Of a DNA stretch of 64,000 bases, positions 3,672-15,723 are shown one piece after another. The translations under genes were made by a program, and so were the position numbers. The DNA is from an uncultured archaeon (GTDB lineage Archaea; Thermoplasmatota; Penumbrarchaeia; JASLWR01), in the NCBI GenBank assembly GCA_964342815.1, contig CAYFHS010000012.1, positions 56,600 through 120,599 on the forward strand. The letters are read 5' to 3'. The notes below the pieces were generated by a model. It did not search any database. It was given only the letters and a program-made list of their open reading frames with translations, and was not told where the DNA came from. Positions within the stretch are counted from its first letter, which is position 1; each line of letters starts with the position of its first letter.

Positions 3672-3792
3672 ACGAGTATTTCCCGGTGCAAGCGAACAGA
3701 TGTTCCAAGATTATCGGCAGAGGCGTATATATAAGAAAAATATAGATACTTTATTAAATTTCAGTTCCTAAGGTTTATCGAAGGTGTCCTCG

Positions 3793-6700
3793 ATGTTAGA
3801 GTTTACCAACAGCTCTCTAAAAAAGGCCCTACTCGGGTTTGTCGTAGCCCTGCTATTTCTGATACCAATTATAATAGACGCTGAATCTCCGACATCCGGT
3901 GGAAAATTGCATGTACATATAGAAAACGTACAAGAAAATGACCCAATTTCGAATGTAAATGGCGAACCGACCAGCGGCATTACAGGAACCAGGAGTATAT
4001 TGATCGAGGAGAGTTTCGAGAGCTACGATAATCTGGACAATACCAGCACCACTGCATTATTGTCCGATGGCAAGGCAATGCTATCGAGAACCCCGGCACC
4101 CGATAAAAAGACAACAATAAGCATTGACCTTGACTGGCTTTCGAATCCTGTCCATACTTATCCCTTTCATCCCAACGCCATGACCTATGATCCAATGATT
4201 CCATGTCTGGTTCTATCACTCCAGGGTCCAAAGGTACTGTACCGTGTAAATCTGGACAATGGAGACAAGCTCGATGAGATTCCAACCATAAGCAACAATA
4301 ATAGCGGGATTGCGTACAACGGGGATTATTACTATTACTCTGTGGGTGCTGACTCCGATTCCAGTAAACCTGACGTATATAAATATCAAAAGGGCCAGGA
4401 TAAGACCGCTGAATTTATTTCCAGTAAATCCAGCAAGGATGGATATCCCCTTACAGTGGTGGGCAATTATATTTACAGGGGAAAGGGCTATGAAGACGGA
4501 AGCAAGGATTGGGGGAAAATAAACCAGTTAGAAAAGGTGTCTTTGGCGGAACCAGACAAGGTATTGAGCACCTTCCAGCTGGGATTTACGGGGATGACCG
4601 ATCTCGCTTTCGATGGCAAATACATCTGGGTGCTTGTTAACAGCTCTGATAAAGTCTCTTTATATCAATTTGATACGGATGGGAACAGCATTGGGACCTT
4701 CAAGGACTTTTATACTCCGAGAGCCGGGCTCAAACCATGCGGCCTTGCTTACGTTGATGGTACGGGGGATGAAGAAGATTCCCTGTATGTACTACTATAC
4801 AAGGAGAGGGGCGAACCCGATAACAGCCAATTGTTAAGGGTGAAGATGACAAGTCGTTATCAGTTAGAAGACACGATAATTTCGAAAACCTATGATGATT
4901 TCGAGGAACCATTATATGCAGTAAAATTCGAAGCTGTAACAACGACAACATCCTCAACCACTCTAGAATATTTCTATTCCAAAGAGAATGGAATAAATTG
5001 GGAGGAGGCAAATCTGAACGAATGGATCGATTTCGAAGAACCGGTGAACAAACTTTCCTATAAGATAATATTGGGTACACGAAATCACGAAAAAACTCCT
5101 ACATTATCCAACCTGAAAGTGCTGAAGAACGAGGTAGAAACTCCCGTTGCCAACTCCCCCACACATAATTTTTGGGCCAACACAGCGAACGTGAATTTCA
5201 AATGGACCTTCAATGATCCAAACGAAGGTGACGCACAGGCGGCATTCGAGATTGAATTAGCTGAAAGTGACACGTTCAGCACGATTTACCGGGAACAGAC
5301 CGTAACAAGCTTGGAAAGAAGCCATACTTTCACCGAAAATTTAAAAGACGGATTATTTTACTGGAGAGTTCGAACAAAGGACGATCACAATCAATGGAGC
5401 GCCTTTTCCGACCCATTCCTCGTCAATGTAAATTGGATATCTCCAGTGGGAAGTGTGATCATTAACAATGACAACCTTACCACCGATGACCGGAAAGTAG
5501 AATTGACCCTCGCTGCAGATGGTACCTACCCAGGCGTCATAGAGATGTATATCAGCAATAACCCCGCGGCTCCCAAAGACGGATCAGCATGGGAAATTTA
5601 CGTGACAAGTTTCAACTGGACCTTGGATAAGGAACTTGGTGAGAAAACAGTCCATGTCTGGTACCGTGACGAAAACGATCTGAAAAGTACTGTTGCAAAG
5701 GCCACCATCACTCTAGAAGAAAAAGCCGTCGATGTCGATACGGGAATTCTGGGTTGGGGAAAGATCGGAGCGGATTCAAAGGGGTATGGGGGCGTTGATA
5801 TTTTTTACATCGTTCTCATCTTGGTTTTAATCGTTATCGTAGTAGTAGTGATCTTTGTAATAAAGAACAGAGGTGGAGGAGATTATTACGACGATGACTA
5901 TGACGATGATGATGAAGAGGAGGAAGATGATCTGGATGTTCTGGAACAGATCCGTCGGAAGCGGAAGAAGGAAATGGGTGCGGAAATAAAGGAAGAGAAA
6001 GAGGACGTGATAGAGGAGGAAGAAGAGGAGGAAGAGAAATTCGAGAAAAAAGCCCACGGCCGCTATACCGACCTTTCAACGGAAGACGATTTTTCCATGG
6101 GCACCAGTCGTTACGGTGTTCCAGAAGAAGAAGAAAAAAAAGAAGAAAAGGAACTCAGCGGTCCGTATTCCATGAAATCATTGGAGGACGATTTCTCATT
6201 GGAACCCCAGAGATACGGGGGCCCTCCTTCCTTGGATGATTTCATGAAGAATATCGAGGACATGAGTGAAGAACCTCAAGCAGAAGAGAAAAAGTCCGCA
6301 TCCATGCCCAAGGAAAAAGAAAAGACGCTCTCAAAAGAGGAAGCAAAGAAAGCCAGGGAACAGATAGAAATGCTGAAAAAACGCCGCCTGGACATTCTGG
6401 ATTCATTGAGGTCAACTACAGACAGCCGCAGACAGAAAGCACTTGAGCAGCAAATGGACGATATTCAGCAGCTGATTATTGGATTGAGAAAACATCTTCC
6501 CGCTGACGAAGAAGTGGACGAAGTCACTGAAGAGGAAGCCCCACCCACGGTAGAGGCGGAAAAGATTGAGGTAATGGATGTACCCAGCGATATAAAGGAC
6601 CAGTTGAAAGAGGGAGCGAGACGAGATAAAAAACGCGGGGTTGGCTTTGGATTTCTGGACCAAGAAGTAGCAGACACGGAAGAAAAAACCTCGCAACAAC

Positions 6701-7890
6701 AACCGATATCTCCGGAAGTCCAAGCGAGGTTGGCACAGATACTCCAACAGTTACAGGTACTTCAACAGCAGCAGCTTGCGGTGCAGAACCAGATGCGGCA
6801 AACATCCGAACCCGGACAGCAGAGATTATTGAATCAACAGGTACAGGTGATGGCACAACAACAGCAGGCATTGCAGCAGGAAGCTCAAAGACTTCAACAA
6901 CAGTCACAGCAAAAGTCACCCACGGAGGAAAAGACCGCAATATCACCCGAAGTGGAAGCTAAACTGGCACAGATTCTTCAACAGCTGCAGGTCCTGGCTC
7001 AACAGAAAATGGCAGTACAGAACCAGATGCGGCAGACTGCGGATCCTCAGATGCAGCAGACACTTAACCAGCAGTACCAGACCATAACGCAGCAACAACA
7101 GACATTGCAGCAGCAGGCGCAGTTACTTCAACAACAGGCTGCAGCGCTTCAACCTGAAGCAGCAGCACCACAGCCCGAACCGGCGGTAGCACCTTCGGAC
7201 GTGGAGGCAAAGGCAAGACAGATACTTCAGCAACTTCAGGCACTTGCTCAACAGCAGATAGCGATACAGAATCAGATGCGGCAGACCACAGACCCGGCGC
7301 AAAAACTGACATTGGCTCAGCAGGATCAAGCTTGCAAACAGCAGATGGAAGCTCTGAAAGCACAGGCTGCAGCGCTTCATCAGCAGTCTCAGTACCAACC
7401 ACCGGCTCCTCCCCAGGAAGAGGCGCCGCCACCTGCTCCGACTCCCGAGATGGAGGCAAAGTTGAGACAGATACTAGGACAGCTACAGGCAATTCAGGAG
7501 CAGCAGGCAGTGGTACAAAATCAACTTTCACAGACACAAGACCCGGGACAACAACAGGCTTTAAGTTCACATTATCAGTCACTTCAGCAGCAAGCTATGG
7601 CATTGAAACAGCAAGCGGAAGCAGTACAACAACAGGCAGCGGGAACCCCTGCACCACCAGCCCAAGCACCGGCTCCGCAACCTGCACCACAGAATGCACA
7701 GGCACAATATAACGCCGTGGCCCAACAGTACCAGACCCTGCAGCAGCAGAGTGCCGCCATCCAGCAGCAGCTTCAGCAGGCCAGGGATCCCGGGCAGCAG
7801 CAGGCCCTTATGCAGCAGTATCAGGCCGTACAACAGCAGCTCGGCCCACTGGGCCAGCAGCTTCAACAGCTGCAGGCTGCACAACGATAG
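3793..7890 (+). CDS. Large single-pass membrane protein: extracellular propeller-like and Ig/Fn3-like domains, cytoplasmic acidic region and Gln-rich hairpin repeats
   Basis: Signal peptide; blade-like motifs GIAYNG, DLAFDG, GLAYVDG; YWRVRTKD Fn3-like motif; TM IFYIVLILVLIVIVVVVIFVI. ATG 3793 follows AAGGTG; the ORF-track GTG at 3784 lies inside that RBS. Confidence 0.85.
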   Translation: MLEFTNSSLKKALLGFVVALLFLIPIIIDAESPTSGGKLHVHIENVQENDPISNVNGEPTSGITGTRSILIEESFESYDNLDNTSTTALLSDGKAMLSRTPAPDKKTTISIDLDWLSNPVHTYPFHPNAMTYDPMIPCLVLSLQGPKVLYRVNLDNGDKLDEIPTISNNNSGIAYNGDYYYYSVGADSDSSKPDVYKYQKGQDKTAEFISSKSSKDGYPLTVVGNYIYRGKGYEDGSKDWGKINQLEKVSLAEPDKVLSTFQLGFTGMTDLAFDGKYIWVLVNSSDKVSLYQFDTDGNSIGTFKDFYTPRAGLKPCGLAYVDGTGDEEDSLYVLLYKERGEPDNSQLLRVKMTSRYQLEDTIISKTYDDFEEPLYAVKFEAVTTTTSSTTLEYFYSKENGINWEEANLNEWIDFEEPVNKLSYKIILGTRNHEKTPTLSNLKVLKNEVETPVANSPTHNFWANTANVNFKWTFNDPNEGDAQAAFEIELAESDTFSTIYREQTVTSLERSHTFTENLKDGLFYWRVRTKDDHNQWSAFSDPFLVNVNWISPVGSVIINNDNLTTDDRKVELTLAADGTYPGVIEMYISNNPAAPKDGSAWEIYVTSFNWTLDKELGEKTVHVWYRDENDLKSTVAKATITLEEKAVDVDTGILGWGKIGADSKGYGGVDIFYIVLILVLIVIVVVVIFVIKNRGGGDYYDDDYDDDDEEEEDDLDVLEQIRRKRKKEMGAEIKEEKEDVIEEEEEEEEKFEKKAHGRYTDLSTEDDFSMGTSRYGVPEEEEKKEEKELSGPYSMKSLEDDFSLEPQRYGGPPSLDDFMKNIEDMSEEPQAEEKKSASMPKEKEKTLSKEEAKKAREQIEMLKKRRLDILDSLRSTTDSRRQKALEQQMDDIQQLIIGLRKHLPADEEVDEVTEEEAPPTVEAEKIEVMDVPSDIKDQLKEGARRDKKRGVGFGFLDQEVADTEEKTSQQQPISPEVQARLAQILQQLQVLQQQQLAVQNQMRQTSEPGQQRLLNQQVQVMAQQQQALQQEAQRLQQQSQQKSPTEEKTAISPEVEAKLAQILQQLQVLAQQKMAVQNQMRQTADPQMQQTLNQQYQTITQQQQTLQQQAQLLQQQAAALQPEAAAPQPEPAVAPSDVEAKARQILQQLQALAQQQIAIQNQMRQTTDPAQKLTLAQQDQACKQQMEALKAQAAALHQQSQYQPPAPPQEEAPPPAPTPEMEAKLRQILGQLQAIQEQQAVVQNQLSQTQDPGQQQALSSHYQSLQQQAMALKQQAEAVQQQAAGTPAPPAQAPAPQPAPQNAQAQYNAVAQQYQTLQQQSAAIQQQLQQARDPGQQQALMQQYQAVQQQLGPLGQQLQQLQAAQR
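6706..7887 (+). repeat. Five tandem ~65-85 aa Gln-rich helix-DP-helix repeats (coding)
   Basis: Repeated (S/T)PE(V/M)EAKL.QILQQLQ.L.QQ..A.QNQMRQT.DP.QQ..L.QQ. The DNA core CAGAA(C/T)CAGATGCGGCA recurs three times. Confidence 0.9.
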
Positions 7891-7952: not shown

Positions 7953-8903
7953 ATGAAGGATAATAAAAAGGTCTTCAGAAAGACCGAATCCGGTCTGAAC
8001 TGCCCGAACTGCAGCCAGTTCATGGGCCCGTTCAAAGTTTGCCCATACTGCAGGACAAAGGTAAAGAACCGCCTGGATATCAGGACCTTCAAGGCTATTA
8101 GCGTTGTTGTTGCCGTAGTGGGGATCGCCTTCTTATTGGTCTGGGCCAACATGAAAGATCGGGAAAAGTGGGATATTGAGGATCTGACCAAACGCCAGAA
8201 TTACGCGTACCTAGAATTCAACGGTACCGTGGTGGAAGATTCTCGTTATTATGTTTCATTCGGAGCGGAAGGGGAAAGACTCCCCGGTTCCCTAAGTTTC
8301 CGTTTTGACGATGGAACCGGGATAATGGAGGTAAAAGCATACCAGGAGGTTGCCAAGGACCTTGTCAAAGAAAAGATGATCCCTGTTAGAGGCGACAGCA
8401 TAAAAATTTCCGGCCCCGTCAACTATCGCGGCAACGACATGACGCTGCTGCTGCAGGATTGGACAGCCCTCGAGATCGAGAGACCCGATCCCGATATTAC
8501 CGTAACTATCGCAGACATTTATGAGAATCCGGATGAAGATGCCTTTCCATTTGGAAAGATGATAAAAGTATCCGGTCTTTTAACTGGAGCGGTATTTGTG
8601 GCAGAAGATCTTGAAACGGATTTTGCTGACAAGGTCGGTAATATGAAAATTCTGATAAAGGACGAGAATGACAACACAGCCATTATTCATGTGGCCCAAT
8701 CTCTCTACTCACCATATTATCTCTATAACGAAGAAGTTGGCGCTGGAGAATATAACTTATATGAAGTGGGGACTGAACTCATAACGGTTACCGGTCATCT
8801 CGTCTGGGACAAGTATGCGCCCAACGAGGTTACGGGCGGGAAGGGGAACTGGGTTATTGAACCACAGAGACTGGAAGACGTACATCTGGAGGTGGTTTCA
8901 TAG
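7953..8903 (+). CDS. Zn-ribbon + TM + two extracytoplasmic OB-fold domains
   Basis: CPNC...CPYC, one TM, then OB-like F-DDGTG-MEV...GDSIKISG and a C-terminal W-IEPQRLEDV motif. Confidence 0.8.
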   Translation: MKDNKKVFRKTESGLNCPNCSQFMGPFKVCPYCRTKVKNRLDIRTFKAISVVVAVVGIAFLLVWANMKDREKWDIEDLTKRQNYAYLEFNGTVVEDSRYYVSFGAEGERLPGSLSFRFDDGTGIMEVKAYQEVAKDLVKEKMIPVRGDSIKISGPVNYRGNDMTLLLQDWTALEIERPDPDITVTIADIYENPDEDAFPFGKMIKVSGLLTGAVFVAEDLETDFADKVGNMKILIKDENDNTAIIHVAQSLYSPYYLYNEEVGAGEYNLYEVGTELITVTGHLVWDKYAPNEVTGGKGNWVIEPQRLEDVHLEVVS

Positions 8904-8950
8904 CCGAGAAGATCGAAGAAACCGAGAAAAAGCCAGTTGGGAAGGAAGAA

Positions 8951-10201
8951 GTGCTGGCCGCAGGCAAGAAACAATGTCCCGCTTGCGGTAAATACGTTGA
9001 CAAGGAACGCCGTATCTGCCCCGAGTGTACCGCACATTTCAGCTACCGCATAAAGGAATCTACCCTGGTGAAATTCTCATCTATATTTGTTGTAATAGGC
9101 GTCGTATTCTTTCTGATAGCAGCATATTGGCCAACAGGTATAACCGACGTGGAAGACATGGACCGATATGACAATTTCTCAATCATGACTTTCAAGGGAA
9201 AGGTGGTTGAAGCACCCGACTACGACGTTTATCCTTACCAGGAATACGGTGAGATGAAATTAAATATAAGCGACGAGACAGGTTATTTACAAGTACTATG
9301 CAACAGCGGGGTGACCGAGAGTCTGATAAAGAGCGGAAAGATACCAGCCGTTGGCGACACCGTGGAAGTGACAGGGCGAGTTCTTTTCATTGAGTCCGTG
9401 TCCCCCGGGGCATGGAAAAACATCACTCTTTCAAATCAAGGCCTCAAATTATATCTTAAAGGGGAAGCAGAACTAAAGGGGCGGGAAGATGCGTTCAAAC
9501 GGGTGGAGGTGATGTACGAGGATAACATCAAGATATTTCCCAACAAATACACGAAAAAGTCGATTTCCAATATTGCCGGAAAACCCAAAGAAACCTTTGA
9601 AATTGGCACAAAAGTTGTGGTGAGCGGAAAAGTTGTTTCTGTTTTAACAGATTACCCCACTGCTTATCAGTTCCATATCGGTGACGAAGATAATGCAAAA
9701 AATCTCATGGTATATGTTCCAAAGGGTCTCGTTCAACTATCTGGCATTGAATTAGAATCGGAAGAAGATATCATTTTCAATATAAAACCGGGTTCGGATG
9801 TTACAATAATCGGTGCTTTGATATATTATGACAATAAAGAGATATGGGAATTGGTACCAACATCTGTGGGGACGAAAATCAAAGTGGGTGGAAATCCGTG
9901 TTTCGAAGTTACTCAAGAGGATTCTTCGTTTACATTTACCGTGGACAAAATAATGTCCAACAAGGGATTGTACGAGAATGCACGCGTAGGATTGAATAAT
10001 GTCAAAATAGTAAATAAAAACTATAAATTGTATGTTAAAGACCAGGGTGGTACGGATGAAATTGTTCTTTTCAGCTATGGAAGTTTAGGAGAATATAATA
10101 CAGGTGACATCGTTAACGTCGAAGGGCAATTTATATATTATGAAGGAAAAAAGATATGGGAAATTAAACTAAATGCCGATGATATCAGGGAGGTGGTCTG
10201 A
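8951..10201 (+). CDS. Zn-ribbon + TM + about three OB-fold domains; paralog of the upstream gene
   Basis: CPAC...CPEC, TM, ISDETGYLQV...IPAVGDTVEVTG, and repeated G-x-IYY...IWE(L/I) motifs. GTG start. Confidence 0.8.
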   Translation: MLAAGKKQCPACGKYVDKERRICPECTAHFSYRIKESTLVKFSSIFVVIGVVFFLIAAYWPTGITDVEDMDRYDNFSIMTFKGKVVEAPDYDVYPYQEYGEMKLNISDETGYLQVLCNSGVTESLIKSGKIPAVGDTVEVTGRVLFIESVSPGAWKNITLSNQGLKLYLKGEAELKGREDAFKRVEVMYEDNIKIFPNKYTKKSISNIAGKPKETFEIGTKVVVSGKVVSVLTDYPTAYQFHIGDEDNAKNLMVYVPKGLVQLSGIELESEEDIIFNIKPGSDVTIIGALIYYDNKEIWELVPTSVGTKIKVGGNPCFEVTQEDSSFTFTVDKIMSNKGLYENARVGLNNVKIVNKNYKLYVKDQGGTDEIVLFSYGSLGEYNTGDIVNVEGQFIYYEGKKIWEIKLNADDIREVV

Positions 10202-11545
10202 GTGAACATGCCGCTTGATCTGATGCTTTTTACCATTGCAATTACCACAGTTGCCGCCGTGGTCGGGGGTCTCATTACAATGATGTTCCCTGGAATGCAC
10301 GTTTACAACCTTTTGGGATTCATGATGATATTTTCCATGGCCACGGTGGAGAGCATTAACCCGATCTATCTGGCGTCTATCATAGTTGGATTGATGCTGG
10401 GTTACATCATGACCTTCTCTTCCATAAGTACTCTTTATTTCCAGGCACCCGACGACTCCACAATGTTCTTCATGATGCCTTCCCAGAAATACATGATGAA
10501 GGGAAAGGGGCATGCAGCTGCCGTGCTGGGTGCTGTTGGCTCGCTTGTTGGAGTTCTCATCGTGGTGGTGGGTCTCCCACTGGGAGGATTCATAATCAAG
10601 ATATTTTACGATGTGTTCAAAGAAGCAATGTTCTTTCTCACCGGTATCGTGATCTGCTTCATCCTCATGTCCGAATGGCCCAAGGATTTCGGACAGGGAC
10701 AGACCAAGTGGCAGCGGATGAGGGACGGGTGGTCCACTCTCATGTGGGGATATCTGGTGTTCTTCCTGGCCTCAATACTCGGTATAATAAACTTCAATAA
10801 ACCGCTCATTCCGGCATCCAACGCCTTTCAGAGTCTGGCGCCCATCTTTATCGGTCTTTTTGCCATTCCCTCCATGATCACCAACGTGATATCGAAGACA
10901 AACATTCCGCCGCAGTTCGTTTCCAAAAGCGTCCATCTAAGAGCCCATCATATTATTCAGAGCGGGGTATCCGGTGCGGCAGGAGGTCTGTACGGCGCTG
11001 TAACACCTGGAGTGACCCCGGGCCCATCTGGTTATATGGCGGGCCACGCGACAGCACAGAGCGGAGAGACGAATTTTCTAATGTCTATGAACGTGAACAG
11101 GATAGTGTATTACGTTGGGGCGGCCACGCTGCTGCTGCACCCCGACGTTCACCTAAGGAGAGGCGGGGTATCCATGTTCATTGACCTTTTCGGCTACTCT
11201 CCCAAGAGCTCCGCGGATTACTATCTCGTAATCTCAGCCCTATGTTTCGCAGCATTTTTCTCGTTCATTCTGATACTTGGTTTGTCCAGGGTGGCGGGGA
11301 AATTCGTGAGAAAGCTCGACTTCAGAATAATATCAATAATCAGTATCGTGGTGCTTGTGATCATTGTGGTGCTGTTCACCTCATGGCAGGGCCTGATAGT
11401 CCTCACCGTTGCTTCCGGACTCGGTCTCTTACCGGTTCTTTTCCAGACTCGCAGGATGAATCTTCTCGCAGTTCTGCTGACACCCATGTTCCTCAATATG
11501 AGCGGTGCCGGCGGTACCGTTGCAAAATTACTGGGGTTGATATAG
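10202..11545 (+). CDS. TctA-like (tripartite tricarboxylate transporter permease / DUF112) polytopic membrane protein
   Basis: About 12 hydrophobic segments; FPGMHVYN, QAPDDST, PGVTPG motifs. It abuts the upstream stop codon. Confidence 0.75.
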   Translation: MNMPLDLMLFTIAITTVAAVVGGLITMMFPGMHVYNLLGFMMIFSMATVESINPIYLASIIVGLMLGYIMTFSSISTLYFQAPDDSTMFFMMPSQKYMMKGKGHAAAVLGAVGSLVGVLIVVVGLPLGGFIIKIFYDVFKEAMFFLTGIVICFILMSEWPKDFGQGQTKWQRMRDGWSTLMWGYLVFFLASILGIINFNKPLIPASNAFQSLAPIFIGLFAIPSMITNVISKTNIPPQFVSKSVHLRAHHIIQSGVSGAAGGLYGAVTPGVTPGPSGYMAGHATAQSGETNFLMSMNVNRIVYYVGAATLLLHPDVHLRRGGVSMFIDLFGYSPKSSADYYLVISALCFAAFFSFILILGLSRVAGKFVRKLDFRIISIISIVVLVIIVVLFTSWQGLIVLTVASGLGLLPVLFQTRRMNLLAVLLTPMFLNMSGAGGTVAKLLGLI

Positions 11546-12633
11546 TGAAAGGCCTCACACATTACATCGTAGGGGTCGCCGTGGCGACATTCTTCATTGA
11601 CGCAGTCCAGATGACGCTTATCGACAAGTCCTGGATAATACTTCTGGGCGGTATCTTCGGAATACTTCCCGATTTCATGGATTTCCGCTTCGCAAGATAC
11701 TTGATAGTACACGATTACGAAGTTACACCCGGTCACAAGGAGCTGAATCCGCGCGTTGTGGCCGATACCATAGTAAAGGCCATCGACGAAGCGGCCCAGA
11801 CCGGGAAATCCGTAAAGATAAAACTTCACTCCATGAAGGTAACCCAGGACCTCTGGAGGCAGTATTCCGTCCAGTTCGATACGGACCGTAAGGAAGTTAT
11901 TGCAAGGATCGGACCTCTCGTGACCACTGGTCAGACAGAACAACCGGACACGGCACCAAAGGGAGACAAGGCAATGGCGGTTGCGAAGTACAAGAGCGAC
12001 ATCAACCACACTTACCACCTGGCAACTAACATAGATATCTGGCACGGGAACGATTACGAGTTCGTCCCCGAGGGCGATAAGGTTCGAGTGGATTTCATAC
12101 CATGGCACAGAAAGATATGGCATTCTCTCACAGCCGCTTTCCTCTTCGCCCCAATAGGACTGCTTCTATATGGTCTGGATTACGAGGGAATTCTAGCCGC
12201 CATAATAATAATCGTGGCATTCTGGTCCCATGTTCTCGCGGACCAGATGGGTAATCTCGGATCGAACTTGATCTATCCATTCACTAAAAAGAGGTCAAGG
12301 GGTTTGAAGCTCACCAGCGCAGCGGACCCATTTTCAAATATCTCTTTCGTTTGGGGTGCCATCGCGATAATCATCTTCAATTTCAACGCGTTCAATTTCA
12401 CCCATACCTTCATGATGTGGGGGATCGACGATTATCATGGTCTGAATTACTTCATAGGATTTGGGGAGTATTTTCTGCTGATTGTGGTGATACCCATGGT
12501 CCTTCTGAAACTGGGGATAACGTTTTACAAAAAGAAATTCATTACACGGACGGTAAAGGAAGAGCCCTTATCGGATGAGGAAAAGGAGGCCCTTGAGTCA
12601 CTGGCGGAGATAAGCGACGTGGTAAGGGGGTAA
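11545..12633 (+). CDS. YdjM-like membrane-bound metal-dependent hydrolase with an inserted soluble domain
   Basis: Start reassigned to GTG 11545 (MKGLTHY), overlapping the upstream TAG by 1 nt. Motifs THxxxG, LPDFMD, HRxxWHS, SHVLAD. Confidence 0.8.
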   Translation: MKGLTHYIVGVAVATFFIDAVQMTLIDKSWIILLGGIFGILPDFMDFRFARYLIVHDYEVTPGHKELNPRVVADTIVKAIDEAAQTGKSVKIKLHSMKVTQDLWRQYSVQFDTDRKEVIARIGPLVTTGQTEQPDTAPKGDKAMAVAKYKSDINHTYHLATNIDIWHGNDYEFVPEGDKVRVDFIPWHRKIWHSLTAAFLFAPIGLLLYGLDYEGILAAIIIIVAFWSHVLADQMGNLGSNLIYPFTKKRSRGLKLTSAADPFSNISFVWGAIAIIIFNFNAFNFTHTFMMWGIDDYHGLNYFIGFGEYFLLIVVIPMVLLKLGITFYKKKFITRTVKEEPLSDEEKEALESLAEISDVVRG

Positions 12634-12636
12634 TAA

Positions 12637-15600
12637 ATGAATGCCGAGCCGAATATTATTTATAAAAGGGCCTTTACAGCCATCGTATCCGTCGTTCTGC
12701 TGACAAGCGCTTTACTGAGCTTGCTTCCATTGGCAGGATCATCACCCGATAGAGAAAGCAGATCGGTACTGGAAATAGTTATCAGCGAGGTCGCGCCTCA
12801 CGGTGGCGGTTTTCAGGGTGAGGACTGGCTCGAACTTCTTGTGGTCTCGGGCAGCGGGGACATCTCGGATTACGTGGTGACGAGTTTCGACAGCCAGGAT
12901 GATGACGAGAGCTTCGCGAATTCCACAGTTACGGTGAATGAGGGCGAACGCCTCTTGGTACATTACAACGGTAGCTTAGCGGACGAAACGGATATAACGG
13001 GAGACACTAACGGGAACGGATACATCGATCTGTACATTGCTTCGTCCGAGCTCTCACGTACTCATGAACAGGCCGCTCTCTATACAGCTTCAGATTATTC
13101 CGTTATGGTGGACGCCGTATGCTGGAGCAAAGGGGATATCACCGCAAGCGAGGCGGCAGATGCCCAGAACCTTGTTGACCTGGGAATGTGGCCCTCGAAC
13201 TCTGCATCAGACATGGTTTACTCGGGTGACATAGACAAAGGGATAAGCATAGCAAGAAAGGAGGGGAGGAATGACACCGACAAGCAAAGTGATTGGTACG
13301 TGGAACCGAAAAGTTCTCCAGGGGCCGAAAACAAATTTTTTAACTTTACTGGAGAGGTGCTAATAACCGGGGTATACCTTTCCGGATCCCCCAAGGCACT
13401 TACAATAAAGGTGATCACCGGAGGTGGTGATGTTTCCTGCCTGTCCGTATCCGATCTCGATCGTGCCCCAATCTTTCTCGCCACCGAACCGGTCAGTCTC
13501 ACTCAAGGTGATGAGCTTATATTATATTTCGGAACGGGAACGAATGAAACAGACTCCATAGGGGATATAAATCAGAACAATCTTTGGGAACTGTTTATCG
13601 ATCCAAAGATTTCTCCCACAGGTACCACGGATGCAGTTGCACTCTTCAACGGACTGGACGTAATGGACGCTGTTGCATGGTGTACCGATGGAAAGCTCAG
13701 TTCAGGTGAAATATCCGACCTGGAGTTCCTAATTTCCCAAAACGCATGGGACGGAAATACCAGTGAACACTGTGTGAATATCTCCTTGATGGGCTCACGA
13801 AATGAGCTTGTTCGATCAGAACTAAACGACACGAATACCAGTGCCGACTGGACCATCAGCGGTGAGATAAACAAAGAGATCGATCTCAAGAAATTCGACC
13901 TTGAGACCTTCCGGAACGTGGATTCTGTTACATGTGGTGTTTCCCCCGATTCGAGCTTTTGGTTATTGGCCGGGTTAATTGAGAATGCAACGGAAAGTAT
14001 CCATATCGAGGTTTACCAGTTCGATAATTTTAAAATCGCTGAGAAAGTATTTGCCGCTCAAGAAAGGGGCGTTGAGGTGAAGGTATTGCTGGAGGGAGCG
14101 CCGGTTGCCGGTATACCTGACATGGAAAAATATGTTATGAAAGTAATAACTGATAAGGGAGGGGAGGTCCGTTATATAATCACGGATTCGGATGCTGGTA
14201 TAAAGGAGAGGTACACAAACGTTCACTCTAAATTCATGGTTGTTGATGGGGAGAAATCTTTCATTACTTCCGAGAATTTCAGGGATGACGCTATTCCCTA
14301 CTACGGTACCAAGGGAAACAGAGGATGGTCGGTTCTCATCGAATCGGTTGAGGTTGCGGAATACTTTGAAGGGGTTTTCTCATATGATTTCACACCCAGC
14401 AGCCCAGATACCTTTCCATTTACCGAGAACGATCCTGTTTACGGGGGTCCCCCGGATGGCTTCAACCCGTCATCCAGCCCAAAAAGCGGAAAACACGAAA
14501 AGGTTTTCCACGAACAAAAATTCACGGGTAATATCTATGTAACTCCTATCCTGTGCCCGGACCATACCGGTGATTTGAAGGCCATTTTACCACTTATTGA
14601 AAGCGCAAAAGATTATATCTGGGTAGAGCAACACAGCGTGGGAGTGATATGGGACGACAGTAATAATAAAATTGATAATCAATATTTGGATGCACTTCAC
14701 CAGGCGGCAAGGCGGGGCGTGGAGGTGAGGGTTATCCTCGATTCCAAGTTTGAGTTCGATAATAAACATGAGGAGATCGTCAATAATTTAAATGAGCTTG
14801 CCAAGACAGAAAGACTAAACATGGTAGCAAAGTTATCCTCCAATAAACGAATCGAAGTGGAAAAGGTTCATAATAAAGGAATCATAGTGGACGGTATGAA
14901 AGTACTGGTATCGTCTATCAACTGGGCCACCAATTCCATCTATAACAACCGCGAGGCCGGGGTCATTATAGAGAACGAAGAGGTTGCCGATTATTATTCA
15001 AAGGCATTCCTTCTGGATTGGGGTGAGAACAATACAGGGGTCATAGAGGGAATCGTCACGAACCCGGATGGCAACTATATCTCAGGGGCCGATGTGAAGA
15101 TTGAAGGCACGGGCTTCAATACGATAACAGAATCGGATGGTAGTTTCATCATAACCGGCGTTCCGGTGGGAACCTATATTTTGAAGGTCACTGCCGTGGG
15201 ATTCGAAGAGCATTCCCAGGGTGTCACGGTGGAATTATGGGTGCCAGCCAATGTCACATGCATCATAGGTTCCTGGGGAGCTATTGAGGGAATTGTAAAA
15301 GATATCAATGGAAACCCAATGAAAGGAGCGAAGGTGATAATCGACGATACCGATATAGTCGTTTACACAGACGATAAAGGCCGTTATCTTATAGAGAAAG
15401 CCCCGGTTGGCAGTTATTATCTGAACATAACAATGAAAAAATACCGGAATCTTCTCACCCAGGTTGAAGTGGAGATGGGTAAGATTTATCAGGCAGAGTC
15501 GACCATTACTAAGGAAAGCTCAACCGGGACCGATGGAGAAGATTCCAATAAACCACCCCTTTATCTTCTGGTAATTCTAGGAGTTATCCTTGTGCTGGTA

Positions 15601-15723
15601 TTGGTTATTTTTTCAGCGATTGTACTAAACGCAAAAAAAGTAAGCAAATTGGAAAAGGGAAAGAAAGTAACCCGCATCAGCGGAGATCAGCATCCCTTTG
15701 ACGATAAGATCGAAAAGGAATAA
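12637..15723 (+). CDS. Membrane-anchored exoenzyme: two lamin-tail-like domains, phospholipase D (2x HKD), two carboxypeptidase-regulatory-like domains, C-terminal TM
   Basis: IVISEV...DWLEL and VLITGV LTD-like starts; HSKFMVVD (14224-14247) and HNKGIIVD (14869-14892); IEGIV...GA.V.I repeats. Confidence 0.85.
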   Translation: MNAEPNIIYKRAFTAIVSVVLLTSALLSLLPLAGSSPDRESRSVLEIVISEVAPHGGGFQGEDWLELLVVSGSGDISDYVVTSFDSQDDDESFANSTVTVNEGERLLVHYNGSLADETDITGDTNGNGYIDLYIASSELSRTHEQAALYTASDYSVMVDAVCWSKGDITASEAADAQNLVDLGMWPSNSASDMVYSGDIDKGISIARKEGRNDTDKQSDWYVEPKSSPGAENKFFNFTGEVLITGVYLSGSPKALTIKVITGGGDVSCLSVSDLDRAPIFLATEPVSLTQGDELILYFGTGTNETDSIGDINQNNLWELFIDPKISPTGTTDAVALFNGLDVMDAVAWCTDGKLSSGEISDLEFLISQNAWDGNTSEHCVNISLMGSRNELVRSELNDTNTSADWTISGEINKEIDLKKFDLETFRNVDSVTCGVSPDSSFWLLAGLIENATESIHIEVYQFDNFKIAEKVFAAQERGVEVKVLLEGAPVAGIPDMEKYVMKVITDKGGEVRYIITDSDAGIKERYTNVHSKFMVVDGEKSFITSENFRDDAIPYYGTKGNRGWSVLIESVEVAEYFEGVFSYDFTPSSPDTFPFTENDPVYGGPPDGFNPSSSPKSGKHEKVFHEQKFTGNIYVTPILCPDHTGDLKAILPLIESAKDYIWVEQHSVGVIWDDSNNKIDNQYLDALHQAARRGVEVRVILDSKFEFDNKHEEIVNNLNELAKTERLNMVAKLSSNKRIEVEKVHNKGIIVDGMKVLVSSINWATNSIYNNREAGVIIENEEVADYYSKAFLLDWGENNTGVIEGIVTNPDGNYISGADVKIEGTGFNTITESDGSFIITGVPVGTYILKVTAVGFEEHSQGVTVELWVPANVTCIIGSWGAIEGIVKDINGNPMKGAKVIIDDTDIVVYTDDKGRYLIEKAPVGSYYLNITMKKYRNLLTQVEVEMGKIYQAESTITKESSTGTDGEDSNKPPLYLLVILGVILVLVLVIFSAIVLNAKKVSKLEKGKKVTRISGDQHPFDDKIEKE

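Follow-up and report, generated by a model that had tools for sequence, protein, structure and literature searches.

To our knowledge, the route by which DNA crosses the archaeal membrane is not known, and the sole genetic lead is a Methanococcus pair consisting of an OB-fold protein and a TctA-like protein. In Methanococcus maripaludis, deletion of MMJJ_13020 or MMJJ_13030 abolishes natural transformation and complementation restores it (PMC10133366). The two genes are adjacent and encode an OB-fold protein that has one TM helix and a TctA-like one that has 11 TM helices, respectively, and a TctA homologue is required for transformation in Methanoculleus thermophilus too (PMC10133366).

The five-gene operon described here lies in a window of 64,000 nucleotides, the whole stretch of DNA that was analysed, from an uncultured marine archaeon. 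It resembles the M. maripaludis pair at the level of family and architecture, which suggests that it is an enlarged relative. In both, the gene directly upstream of the one for a PF01970 protein codes for a single-pass OB protein of the PF01336 type, TctB, TctC and ComEC are lacking (for the window, as far as the 88.9%-complete genome shows), and a secreted nuclease is implicated, namely a thermonuclease in M. maripaludis and a PLD-type enzyme in the window. The window differs in that its TctA-like protein is of a divergent subtype and its OB genes number two, both coding for a Zn ribbon at the N-terminus. It adds an obligatory partner of the YdjM-like kind and, in the same operon, a PLD enzyme with LTD-like modules, neither of which is mentioned in PMC10133366. 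What appears to be new in the window is a nuclease-type PLD within the operon. The earlier note had put the system forward as a candidate undescribed one; it is not entirely uncharacterised, as an adjacent OB-fold/TctA-like pair is already essential for M. maripaludis transformation (PMC10133366).

The five genes are co-oriented on the + strand at positions 7953–15723, with junctions of 47, 0, −1 and 3 nt by ORF calling, so that the spacing given in the earlier note is reproduced from the ORF coordinates. The stop of OB2 abuts the start of the TctA-like gene, placing a single-TM OB gene directly upstream of it, and the GTG start of gene 4 has one base in common with the TAG stop of gene 3. The five genes are tightly coupled. 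All five are syntenic in three related genomes (G001 to G003), and a fourth (G005) carries the first four genes and an LTD gene. We surveyed 80 loci holding the TctA subtype of the window, many of them incomplete; an OB gene adjoins the subtype in 69 of these and a YdjM-like gene in 57. Their archaeal hosts belong to Thermoplasmatota, Hadarchaeota and Aenigmatarchaeota, their bacterial hosts to Verrucomicrobiota, Kiritimatiellota, Lentisphaerota, Myxococcota, Planctomycetota, Wallbacteria and Riflebacteria. One or two OB genes, the TctA-like gene and the YdjM-like gene are thus a core conserved across several archaeal and many bacterial phyla. Of 41 related genomes, five carry the TctA subtype, and exactly these five are the ones in which a YdjM-like gene was found. 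The PLD gene occurs in archaeal loci only, in two separate clades, and is missing from all bacterial loci of the survey; it is an archaeal add-on outside the conserved core. The neighbourhood is therefore conserved, with synteny in four related genomes and the core in dozens of archaeal and bacterial loci, and the single system put forward in the earlier note stands for the OB/TctA-like/YdjM-like core in both domains but not for the PLD.

OB1 (316 aa; 7953..8903, +) has a CxxC...CxxC Zn ribbon at residues 18–34, a TM helix at about 41–67 and OB folds at 78–178 and 184–314. OB2 (416 aa; 8951..10201, +) carries a Zn ribbon, a TM helix and, by profile scan, some three OB-like modules (69–144, 204–307 and 356–413). 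In Pfam, OB2 matches the tRNA_anti-codon OB fold (4.6e-9) and the Zn-ribbon models Zn_ribbon_3 and DZR_2, OB1 matches the same OB family below threshold (1.5e-3), and PF01336 scores in members of the OB family reach 6.9e-16 and 6.7e-23. OB1 and OB2 are paralogues, with cross-matches of 1e-14 to 1e-17. The AF2 model of OB1 (pLDDT 84) begins with a CxxC...CxxC knuckle, which is followed by one TM helix (41–67) and two OB barrels. Its best Foldseek matches are RPA70, Teb1, SSB and HIN (E 3e-8 to 1e-5), so that the model is closest to tandem-OB binders of ssDNA. Pfam, model, cross-matches and module scan together bear out a pair of paralogous Zn-ribbon/single-TM proteins with two to three OB folds. 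Basic residues precede the TM helix of OB1, which predicts a cytoplasmic Zn ribbon and OB folds outside. Conservation of the Zn ribbon extends from archaea to bacteria; some Kiritimatiellales OB proteins are without it while the module is kept. The OB ectodomains of the window are acidic (pI 4.4–4.8); the host's whole exoproteome looks acidic as well.

The TctA-like polytopic membrane protein (447 aa; 10202..11545, +) matches PF01970 at 99.5 bits (cut-off 28.9), contains the motifs TLYFQAPDDS, SEWPKDFGQGQ and GHATAQ and keeps the Pro/Gly-rich loops of the family. It is about 25% identical to classical archaeal TctA, from which a long branch separates it in the tree, and belongs to a distinct, divergent subtype. 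With the profile of this subtype, classical TctA from the same class reaches 136–184 bits, and the single-TM gene upstream of it matches the OB profile in 10 of 15 loci. A Cylindrospermopsis plasmid carries a classical-type OB/TctA pair followed by a NERD nuclease-related gene, and tblastn of the window protein against 72,556 plasmids returned two archaeal-type OB-linked genes only and no canonical tctA. As the earlier note had observed for the operon, TctB (PF07331) and TctC (PF03401) had no match there, nor in the 88.9%-complete genome, where control profiles matched; a canonical TctC partner encoded elsewhere in that genome, as a plain explanation of the permease, was thus not found.

The YdjM-like membrane metal hydrolase (362 aa; 11545..12633, +) matches PF04307 at 54.6 bits (cut-off 29), and H6, D43, D46, H188, H193, H229 and D233 are invariant in an alignment of 38 sequences. 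As in the YdjM/DUF457 inner-membrane metal-dependent hydrolases, the His/Asp motifs stand at helix ends, but the window protein adds a soluble, beta-rich insert of about 140 aa (residues 54–194; nt 11704–12126, +) between the second and third motif and always goes with one TctA subtype. The AF2 model has a pLDDT of 86.5, and no PDB match was found by sequence profile, Foldseek or VIA-align. The subfamily is small and sharply bounded: a search of 1.84 billion representatives gives 199 clusters at E ≤ 1e-30. By the positive-inside rule, applied to 38 homologues, the His/Asp ligands and the insert are on the cytoplasmic side, which makes extracellular cleavage by this enzyme, as the earlier note had envisaged, unlikely. 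Co-folding with the TctA-like protein, a check which that note had proposed, gave a confident predicted complex in which helices of the YdjM-like protein pack against the TctA-like protein. The ipSAE was 0.80, against 0.00 for the best control; this mark is reached by 58 of 80 solved complexes and by 2 of 110 mismatched pairs, counts that apply here only roughly, as the prediction used alignments of our own. The runs share at least 80% of contacts, with a partner pLDDT of at least 74. The two proteins are thus confidently predicted to bind each other, and we know of no complex like it.

The last gene (12637..15723, +) encodes a surface-anchored PLD-superfamily enzyme of 1028 aa with a signal/anchor, two CarboxypepD_reg domains, a C-terminal TM helix (975–997) and a basic tail. 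Pfam finds two PLDc_2 halves (5.1e-38) besides the CarboxypepD_reg domains. Both HxK(x)4D motifs are intact (HKD1, residues 530–548, nt 14224–14280, +; HKD2, residues 745–763, nt 14869–14925, +), and six orthologues all retain H530/K532/D537 and H745/K747/D752. The best PDB profile matches are the Nuc endonuclease (2.4e-11), Zucchini, NucT, the poxvirus nicking-joining enzyme and the PLD3/4 exonucleases, and two "phospholipase" chains (7e0m, OPG057) are also among the matches; the closest solved relatives thus appear to be mostly nucleases. Among the NCBIfam models, DrmC scores higher than NucT, and NucT higher than ClsB, each of them falling far short of its own cut-off. At the N-terminal end are two degenerate LTD-like modules (residues ~44–235 and ~240–410, +). 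No Pfam LTD (PF00932) match at E < 0.1 was found in the window's PLD protein, whereas same-position proteins of other archaeal loci have LTD (7.5e-45, 2.3e-9, 2.8e-9 and 1.6e-17); hhalign of the window module against those LTDs gives a weak match (E 0.0022, probability 13%), although the two align colinearly from end to end. In archaea, LTD-PLD genes come after the module in two TctA clades that are separate from each other. Of the LTD-PLD exoenzyme claimed earlier, the anchored double-HKD PLD is upheld, while the LTD is sub-threshold in the window protein and is seen in its orthologues.

We read the operon, with a probability of about 0.5, as a membrane-spanning module for nucleic-acid capture and import that is an enlarged relative of the M. 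maripaludis pair. The C-terminally anchored, LTD-like double-HKD enzyme would act as an extracellular nuclease on DNA outside the cell. OB1 and OB2, anchored by single helices with their Zn ribbons in the cytoplasm, would hold nucleic acid, probably single-stranded, at the membrane by their outside OB folds. The TctA-like protein may provide membrane passage or be the energising part, a genetic requirement being established for its methanogen relatives only. The YdjM-like protein, bound to it with the active site at the cytoplasmic face, would process the incoming material. The cargo may be either whole strands, as in transformation, or fragments and nucleotides, as in feeding. The earlier note had allowed capture, cleavage and import of nucleic acid or of phospholipid-derived products; we favour the nucleic-acid side over the lipid side because of the OB family, the nearest solved relatives of the PLD and the published genetics. 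Several points count against nucleic acid, however. Tandem-OB fold matches are to be expected for any double OB, and the OB ectodomains are acidic. TctA-family proteins are secondary transporters of small anions, and we know of no way for one to pass a polymer. ComEC is also present in all five bacterial carriers tested, and a cytoplasm-facing hydrolase is without counterpart in ComEC-type uptake.

That TctA-family background would suit a solute transporter of the TTT type, in which the tethered OB proteins would replace TctC, an analogy already drawn in the earlier note, the YdjM-like protein would replace TctB and the PLD would be a loosely linked exoenzyme, the substrate being a small anion or oligomer other than nucleic acid, e.g. 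an oligosaccharide or organic acid. PF01970 membership with its Pro/Gly-rich loops, the predicted packing of YdjM-like helices in small-subunit fashion and the lack of the PLD in all bacterial loci agree with such a transporter, and OB folds are able to bind oligosaccharides. We nevertheless consider it unlikely: the OB domains match nucleic-acid-binding PF01336 and not the sugar-binding OB families, the invariant metal ligands mark the YdjM-like protein as an enzyme and not a mere scaffold, relatives of the OB/TctA-like pair are needed for DNA uptake, and nuclease-type genes repeatedly adjoin the module.

A role in envelope or lipid homeostasis, with the PLD as phospholipase or lipid synthase, the YdjM-like protein as a lipid head-group phosphodiesterase and the TctA-like protein moving the anionic product, seems improbable. 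The ClsB and cardiolipin synthase models match the PLD at 5.5e-13 and 7.3e-11, but DrmC and NucT outscore Cls. Its solved matches include a "phospholipase" chain and an envelope phospholipase of poxvirus, but the best of them are nucleases. MlaE, MlaF and MlaD (the MlaFED lipid transporter) lie directly upstream of the module in Kiritimatiellales loci, a link confined to that order. YdjM is placed in the phospholipase C/P1 nuclease clan, as the earlier note states, which suits lipid, whereas PF01336-type OB folds are without known lipid role and LTD domains go with nucleases. Still more remote is sensing, in which the Zn-ribbon/TM/OB proteins would be anti-sigma-type proteins or receptors reporting an outside ligand and the other genes merely co-transcribed. 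Membrane sensors are often built in this way, from a Zn ribbon in the cytoplasm, a single TM helix and a domain outside, and the ribbon's conservation between domains agrees with this, yet the neighbourhood survey of the loci found no regulator conserved beside the module, the Kiritimatiellales proteins keep the module without the ribbon, and the TctA-like and YdjM-like genes are linked to each other by their strict co-occurrence and by the complex predicted for their products.

The operon and its many relatives show that one version of the OB/TctA-like pair comes with a third, obligatory partner: a metal hydrolase of the membrane for which binding to the TctA-like protein is predicted. This trio has a wide distribution among bacteria which possess ComEC as well, and in two archaeal clades it shares an operon with a surface nuclease-type enzyme, which is context evidence for a nucleic-acid substrate independent of the methanogen genetics. 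The operon is a good candidate for a way of importing DNA that does without ComEC, the channel used by bacteria. We suggest, more tentatively, that OB proteins, a TctA-derived protein and a cytoplasm-facing YdjM-derived hydrolase make up a second, ComEC-independent nucleic-acid translocon of archaea and many bacterial phyla, to which Thermoplasmatota add their own substrate-preparing surface PLD-type nuclease. The operon and its relatives supply concrete proteins and cultured carriers, such as the Pontiellaceae isolates among the loci, for such a possible second uptake route, which, if true, would have a bearing on gene transfer and on the marine use of DNA as a nutrient.

Compared with TctABC, the module has a large membrane subunit of the same Pfam family, but this subunit is accompanied by OB proteins and a metal hydrolase, with no TctB or TctC found in operon or genome. 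ComEC consists of the OB domain DUF4131, the Competence domain PF03772 and a metallo-beta-lactamase nuclease domain. The same three kinds of part (an outward OB, a polytopic membrane part and a metal-dependent hydrolase) are separate proteins in the window. PF03772 had no match in the five proteins or the 88.9%-complete genome, and the membrane part has no homology to that of ComEC. DUF4131 matches are sub-threshold in two OB family members (E 0.006 and 0.022), and hhalign of the OB protein against five ComEC N-termini is weak (probability 12%, E 0.0024). In contrast to the nuclease domain of ComEC, which presumably acts outside, the window's hydrolase is of the YdjM type and faces the cytoplasm. 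ExeM, whose activity as an extracellular nuclease is proven, combines LTD with YhcR-type OB folds (PMC6085458). Shewanella ExeM and the window share a surface-exposed enzyme with LTD or LTD-like modules and, alongside, OB folds of the YhcR/PF01336 kind, and HKD chemistry is common to the window PLD, Salmonella Nuc and Helicobacter NucT. Unlike ExeM, Nuc and NucT, the window has two HKD halves in one chain and OB folds on separate membrane proteins, and its PLD carries a C-terminal membrane anchor, CarboxypepD_reg stalk domains and a degenerate LTD.

All five genes lie on the plus strand, and the ORF coordinates confirm the co-orientation and the junctions of 47, 0, -1 and 3 nt that the earlier note had read from the sequence. 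OB1 (7953-8903) gives a sub-threshold Pfam match to the tRNA_anti-codon OB family, and its paralogue by sequence comparison, OB2 (8951-10201), matches the same OB fold at 4.6e-9 together with Zn-ribbon models. The TctA-like gene (10202-11545; Pfam TctA, 99.5 bits) is followed by the YdjM-like hydrolase gene (11545-12633; Pfam YdjM, 54.6 bits), whose GTG start codon overlaps the TAG stop of its predecessor by one base, and then by the PLD enzyme gene (12637-15723), in which Pfam finds two PLDc_2 halves and two CarboxypepD_reg domains. A promoter and terminator scan gave counts close to those of shuffled sequence, and its bacterial-type models make it uninformative for an archaeal host. A gene 62 nt upstream of the operon (3784-7890) encodes a surface protein of 1368 aa whose long cytoplasmic tail is rich in Gln, and its placement there is shared by G001-G003 of the family only.

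These genes make up a genuine, conserved membrane module. The five-gene synteny is complete in the three other genomes of the family; in G005, from further out in the class, genes 1-4 precede an LTD gene that the end of the contig truncates. Scanning one genome per species returned 80 loci with the divergent TctA type of the window (hereafter the subtype) at 28-94% identity, falling to about 35-40% once the window's own family and G005 are set aside. Archaeal carriers belong to Thermoplasmatota, Hadarchaeota and Aenigmatarchaeota, and bacterial ones to Verrucomicrobiota, Kiritimatiellota, Lentisphaerota, Myxococcota, Planctomycetota, Wallbacteria, Riflebacteria and others. An OB gene neighbors the subtype in 69 of the 80 loci and a YdjM-like gene in 57; many loci are incomplete, and the order is always OB(-OB), TctA-like, YdjM-like. 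Of 41 related genomes, exactly five have the YdjM-like gene, the same five that carry the subtype. The core of OB, TctA-like and YdjM-like genes is thus kept across archaea and bacteria, and the full set of five within the family.

Nothing beyond these three core genes is conserved across phyla in the wider neighborhood, where neighbors are lineage specific: MlaFED in Kiritimatiellales, a DnaB-like helicase in Wallbacteria and an amidase in Riflebacteria. In nine Kiritimatiellales loci (L051, L062, L077, L081, L084, L092, L098, L101 and L102), a 430-aa gene, MlaE, an ABC ATPase and MlaD run in the same direction immediately 5' of the OB gene, which may reflect either a link to Mla lipid transport or a lineage-specific gene order. 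Five Wallbacteria/UBP16 loci (L032, L033, L039, L090 and L107) have the DnaB-like helicase and an ABC ATPase ahead of two OB genes, no adjacent YdjM-like gene, and DsbD_2 and SelB downstream; in L035, the YdjM-like gene is 5.5 kb away. A subclade of the subtype with seven loci (L046, L052, L056, L058, L063, L064 and L093) lacks OB and YdjM-like neighbors and adjoins proteins with the Por_Secre_tail sorting domain of type IX secretion. One locus (L074:8876-13892) holds the TctA-like/YdjM-like pair twice in identical copies, a recent duplication or an assembly artefact, and a Lentisphaerae contig (L066:6034-12324) holds two divergent modules back to back.

In a quick FastTree phylogeny with long branches, in which the classical archaeal TctA type served as outgroup, a bacterial clade that likewise has two OB genes is sister (support 99) to that of the window; the topology hints at transfer between domains, and no direction was drawn. 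The other archaeal carriers of the subtype branch apart from the window's clade, and the LTD-PLD association is therefore found in two separate archaeal clades.

The PLD gene is confined to archaeal loci among the 80 and is a lineage-specific addition to the conserved core, which corrects the earlier note's inclusion of it in the system. Its product combines a signal/anchor with two intact HKD motifs and two stalk domains, and closes with a C-terminal TM helix and basic tail. Run against solved structures, the profile built from six orthologues ranked the Nuc endonuclease first (2.4e-11), followed by Zucchini, NucT, a poxvirus nicking-joining enzyme and the PLD3/4 exonucleases, with two chains named as phospholipases also present. 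The description "LTD-PLD exoenzyme" holds for its PLD half, while the LTD is clear only in the same-position proteins of other archaeal loci; in the protein of the window, Pfam finds no LTD, and its profile alignment to true LTDs is colinear but weak. In one archaeal clade, a convergent HD-domain dGTPase-like phosphohydrolase gene lies just past the LTD-PLD gene (L047:11232-12635, L078:8584-9987 and L097:11608-13017, minus strand), and in L047 the YdjM-like gene is separated from the PLD gene by one for an extra protein with LTD and TSP3 repeats.

Seven His/Asp residues are invariant in the YdjM-like protein. Lys and Arg counts in the loops of 38 homologues place these putative metal residues, a 140-aa insert and the C-terminus most likely on the cytoplasmic side, which argues against the proposed cleavage of an extracellular substrate by this enzyme. 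Its fold found no solved relative by sequence profile and no Foldseek match at E ≤ 0.001, and VIA-align against solved structures reached Z ≤ 6.3 over helical hairpins only. Weak Foldseek rows had offered an OB-type barrel for the insert, which comparison with VIA-align did not uphold. The subfamily has few members and sharp limits (199 representative clusters at E ≤ 1e-30 among 1.84 billion); no fusions in longer proteins were found in a search that counts as weak evidence.

Co-folding of the TctA-like protein, which we take to have an elevator-type fold, with the YdjM-like protein supports their binding each other. The predicted complex scored an ipSAE of 0.80 in three runs versus 0.00 in all three controls, a level seen for 58 of 80 solved complexes and for 2 of 110 mismatched pairs, rates that are approximate as our own alignments were used. 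At least 80% of contacts agree between runs, and partner pLDDT is at least 74. On the TctA-like side, the predicted interface takes in the SEWPKDFGQG loop, a cytoplasmic loop of the subtype, and the GHATAQ loop, and on the YdjM-like side residues next to H6, D43 and D46; it is not clearly enriched in invariant TctA residues (8 of about 48, versus 60 of 447 overall).

The AlphaFold model of OB1 (pLDDT 84) has a Zn knuckle, a single long TM helix and two OB barrels, and OB2 contains three OB-like segments. Basic residues ahead of the TM helix suggest that the Zn ribbons lie inside and the OB folds outside, where the ectodomains of the window's proteins are acidic. Among solved structures, the OB1 model best matches DNA-binding proteins with tandem OB folds (RPA70, Teb1, Thermus and Deinococcus SSB, and HIN domains), as is expected of any modeled double OB, yet in agreement with the PF01336 assignment, which is strong in relatives (6.9e-16 and 6.7e-23).

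Of the readings considered, import of nucleic acid, one of the two kinds of substrate proposed in the earlier note, is the best supported. Neither TctC, which would recast the permease as a plain carboxylate transporter, nor TctB or ComEC was found in the window's own genome, a 4.35-Mb MAG that is 88.9% complete. The module is not a general substitute for ComEC in bacteria, as ComEC is present in five of five bacterial carriers tested. Profile alignment of the OB folds with five ComEC N-termini gave a weak match (E 0.0024, probability 12%). A second, classical TctA gene of this genome (L027; contig 1, 4422-5780) has no OB neighbor, unlike most relatives in the class, and is flanked by subtilase and CarboxypepD_reg surface proteins.

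Canonical tctA genes are common on plasmids. A tblastn search of 72,556 plasmids with the window's TctA returned only two genes and no canonical tctA, which suggests for the subtype a closer relation to the archaeal kind than to citrate-type TctA. Both belong to cyanobacterial classical OB-fold/TctA pairs, on Cylindrospermopsis curvispora plasmid NZ_CP060823.1 (L120:3180-7358), where a gene with a NERD nuclease-related domain follows, and on a Pseudanabaena galeata plasmid (L121:3448-5942). Classical TctA proteins of the window's class score 136-184 bits against the subtype profile, and in 10 of 15 loci the gene immediately ahead of the classical TctA encodes a protein with one TM that matches the OB profile. 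Searching with a classical TctA profile found Thermoplasmatota only.

Through these classical proteins, the module appears indirectly linked to an OB/TctA pair of methanogens. In Methanococcus maripaludis, natural transformation requires each of two neighboring genes, MMJJ_13020 (OB fold, one TM helix) and MMJJ_13030 (TctA-like, 11 TM), and complementation restores it; a TctA homologue of Methanoculleus thermophilus is likewise essential. The authors proposed that the TctA-like protein is what transports DNA in archaea, recovered a thermonuclease in their screen as well and did not mention a hydrolase partner (Fonseca et al. 2023, PMC10133366). Our literature search found no later work following that study, and no relevant paper on PF04307 or on TctA together with YdjM. 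The system is thus not wholly uncharacterized, as had been supposed, since a pair of the OB/TctA-like kind already has genetics in M. maripaludis; for the window, the present analysis adds an operonic nuclease-type PLD, a strict co-occurrence test, a topology argument and a predicted TctA-like/YdjM-like complex.
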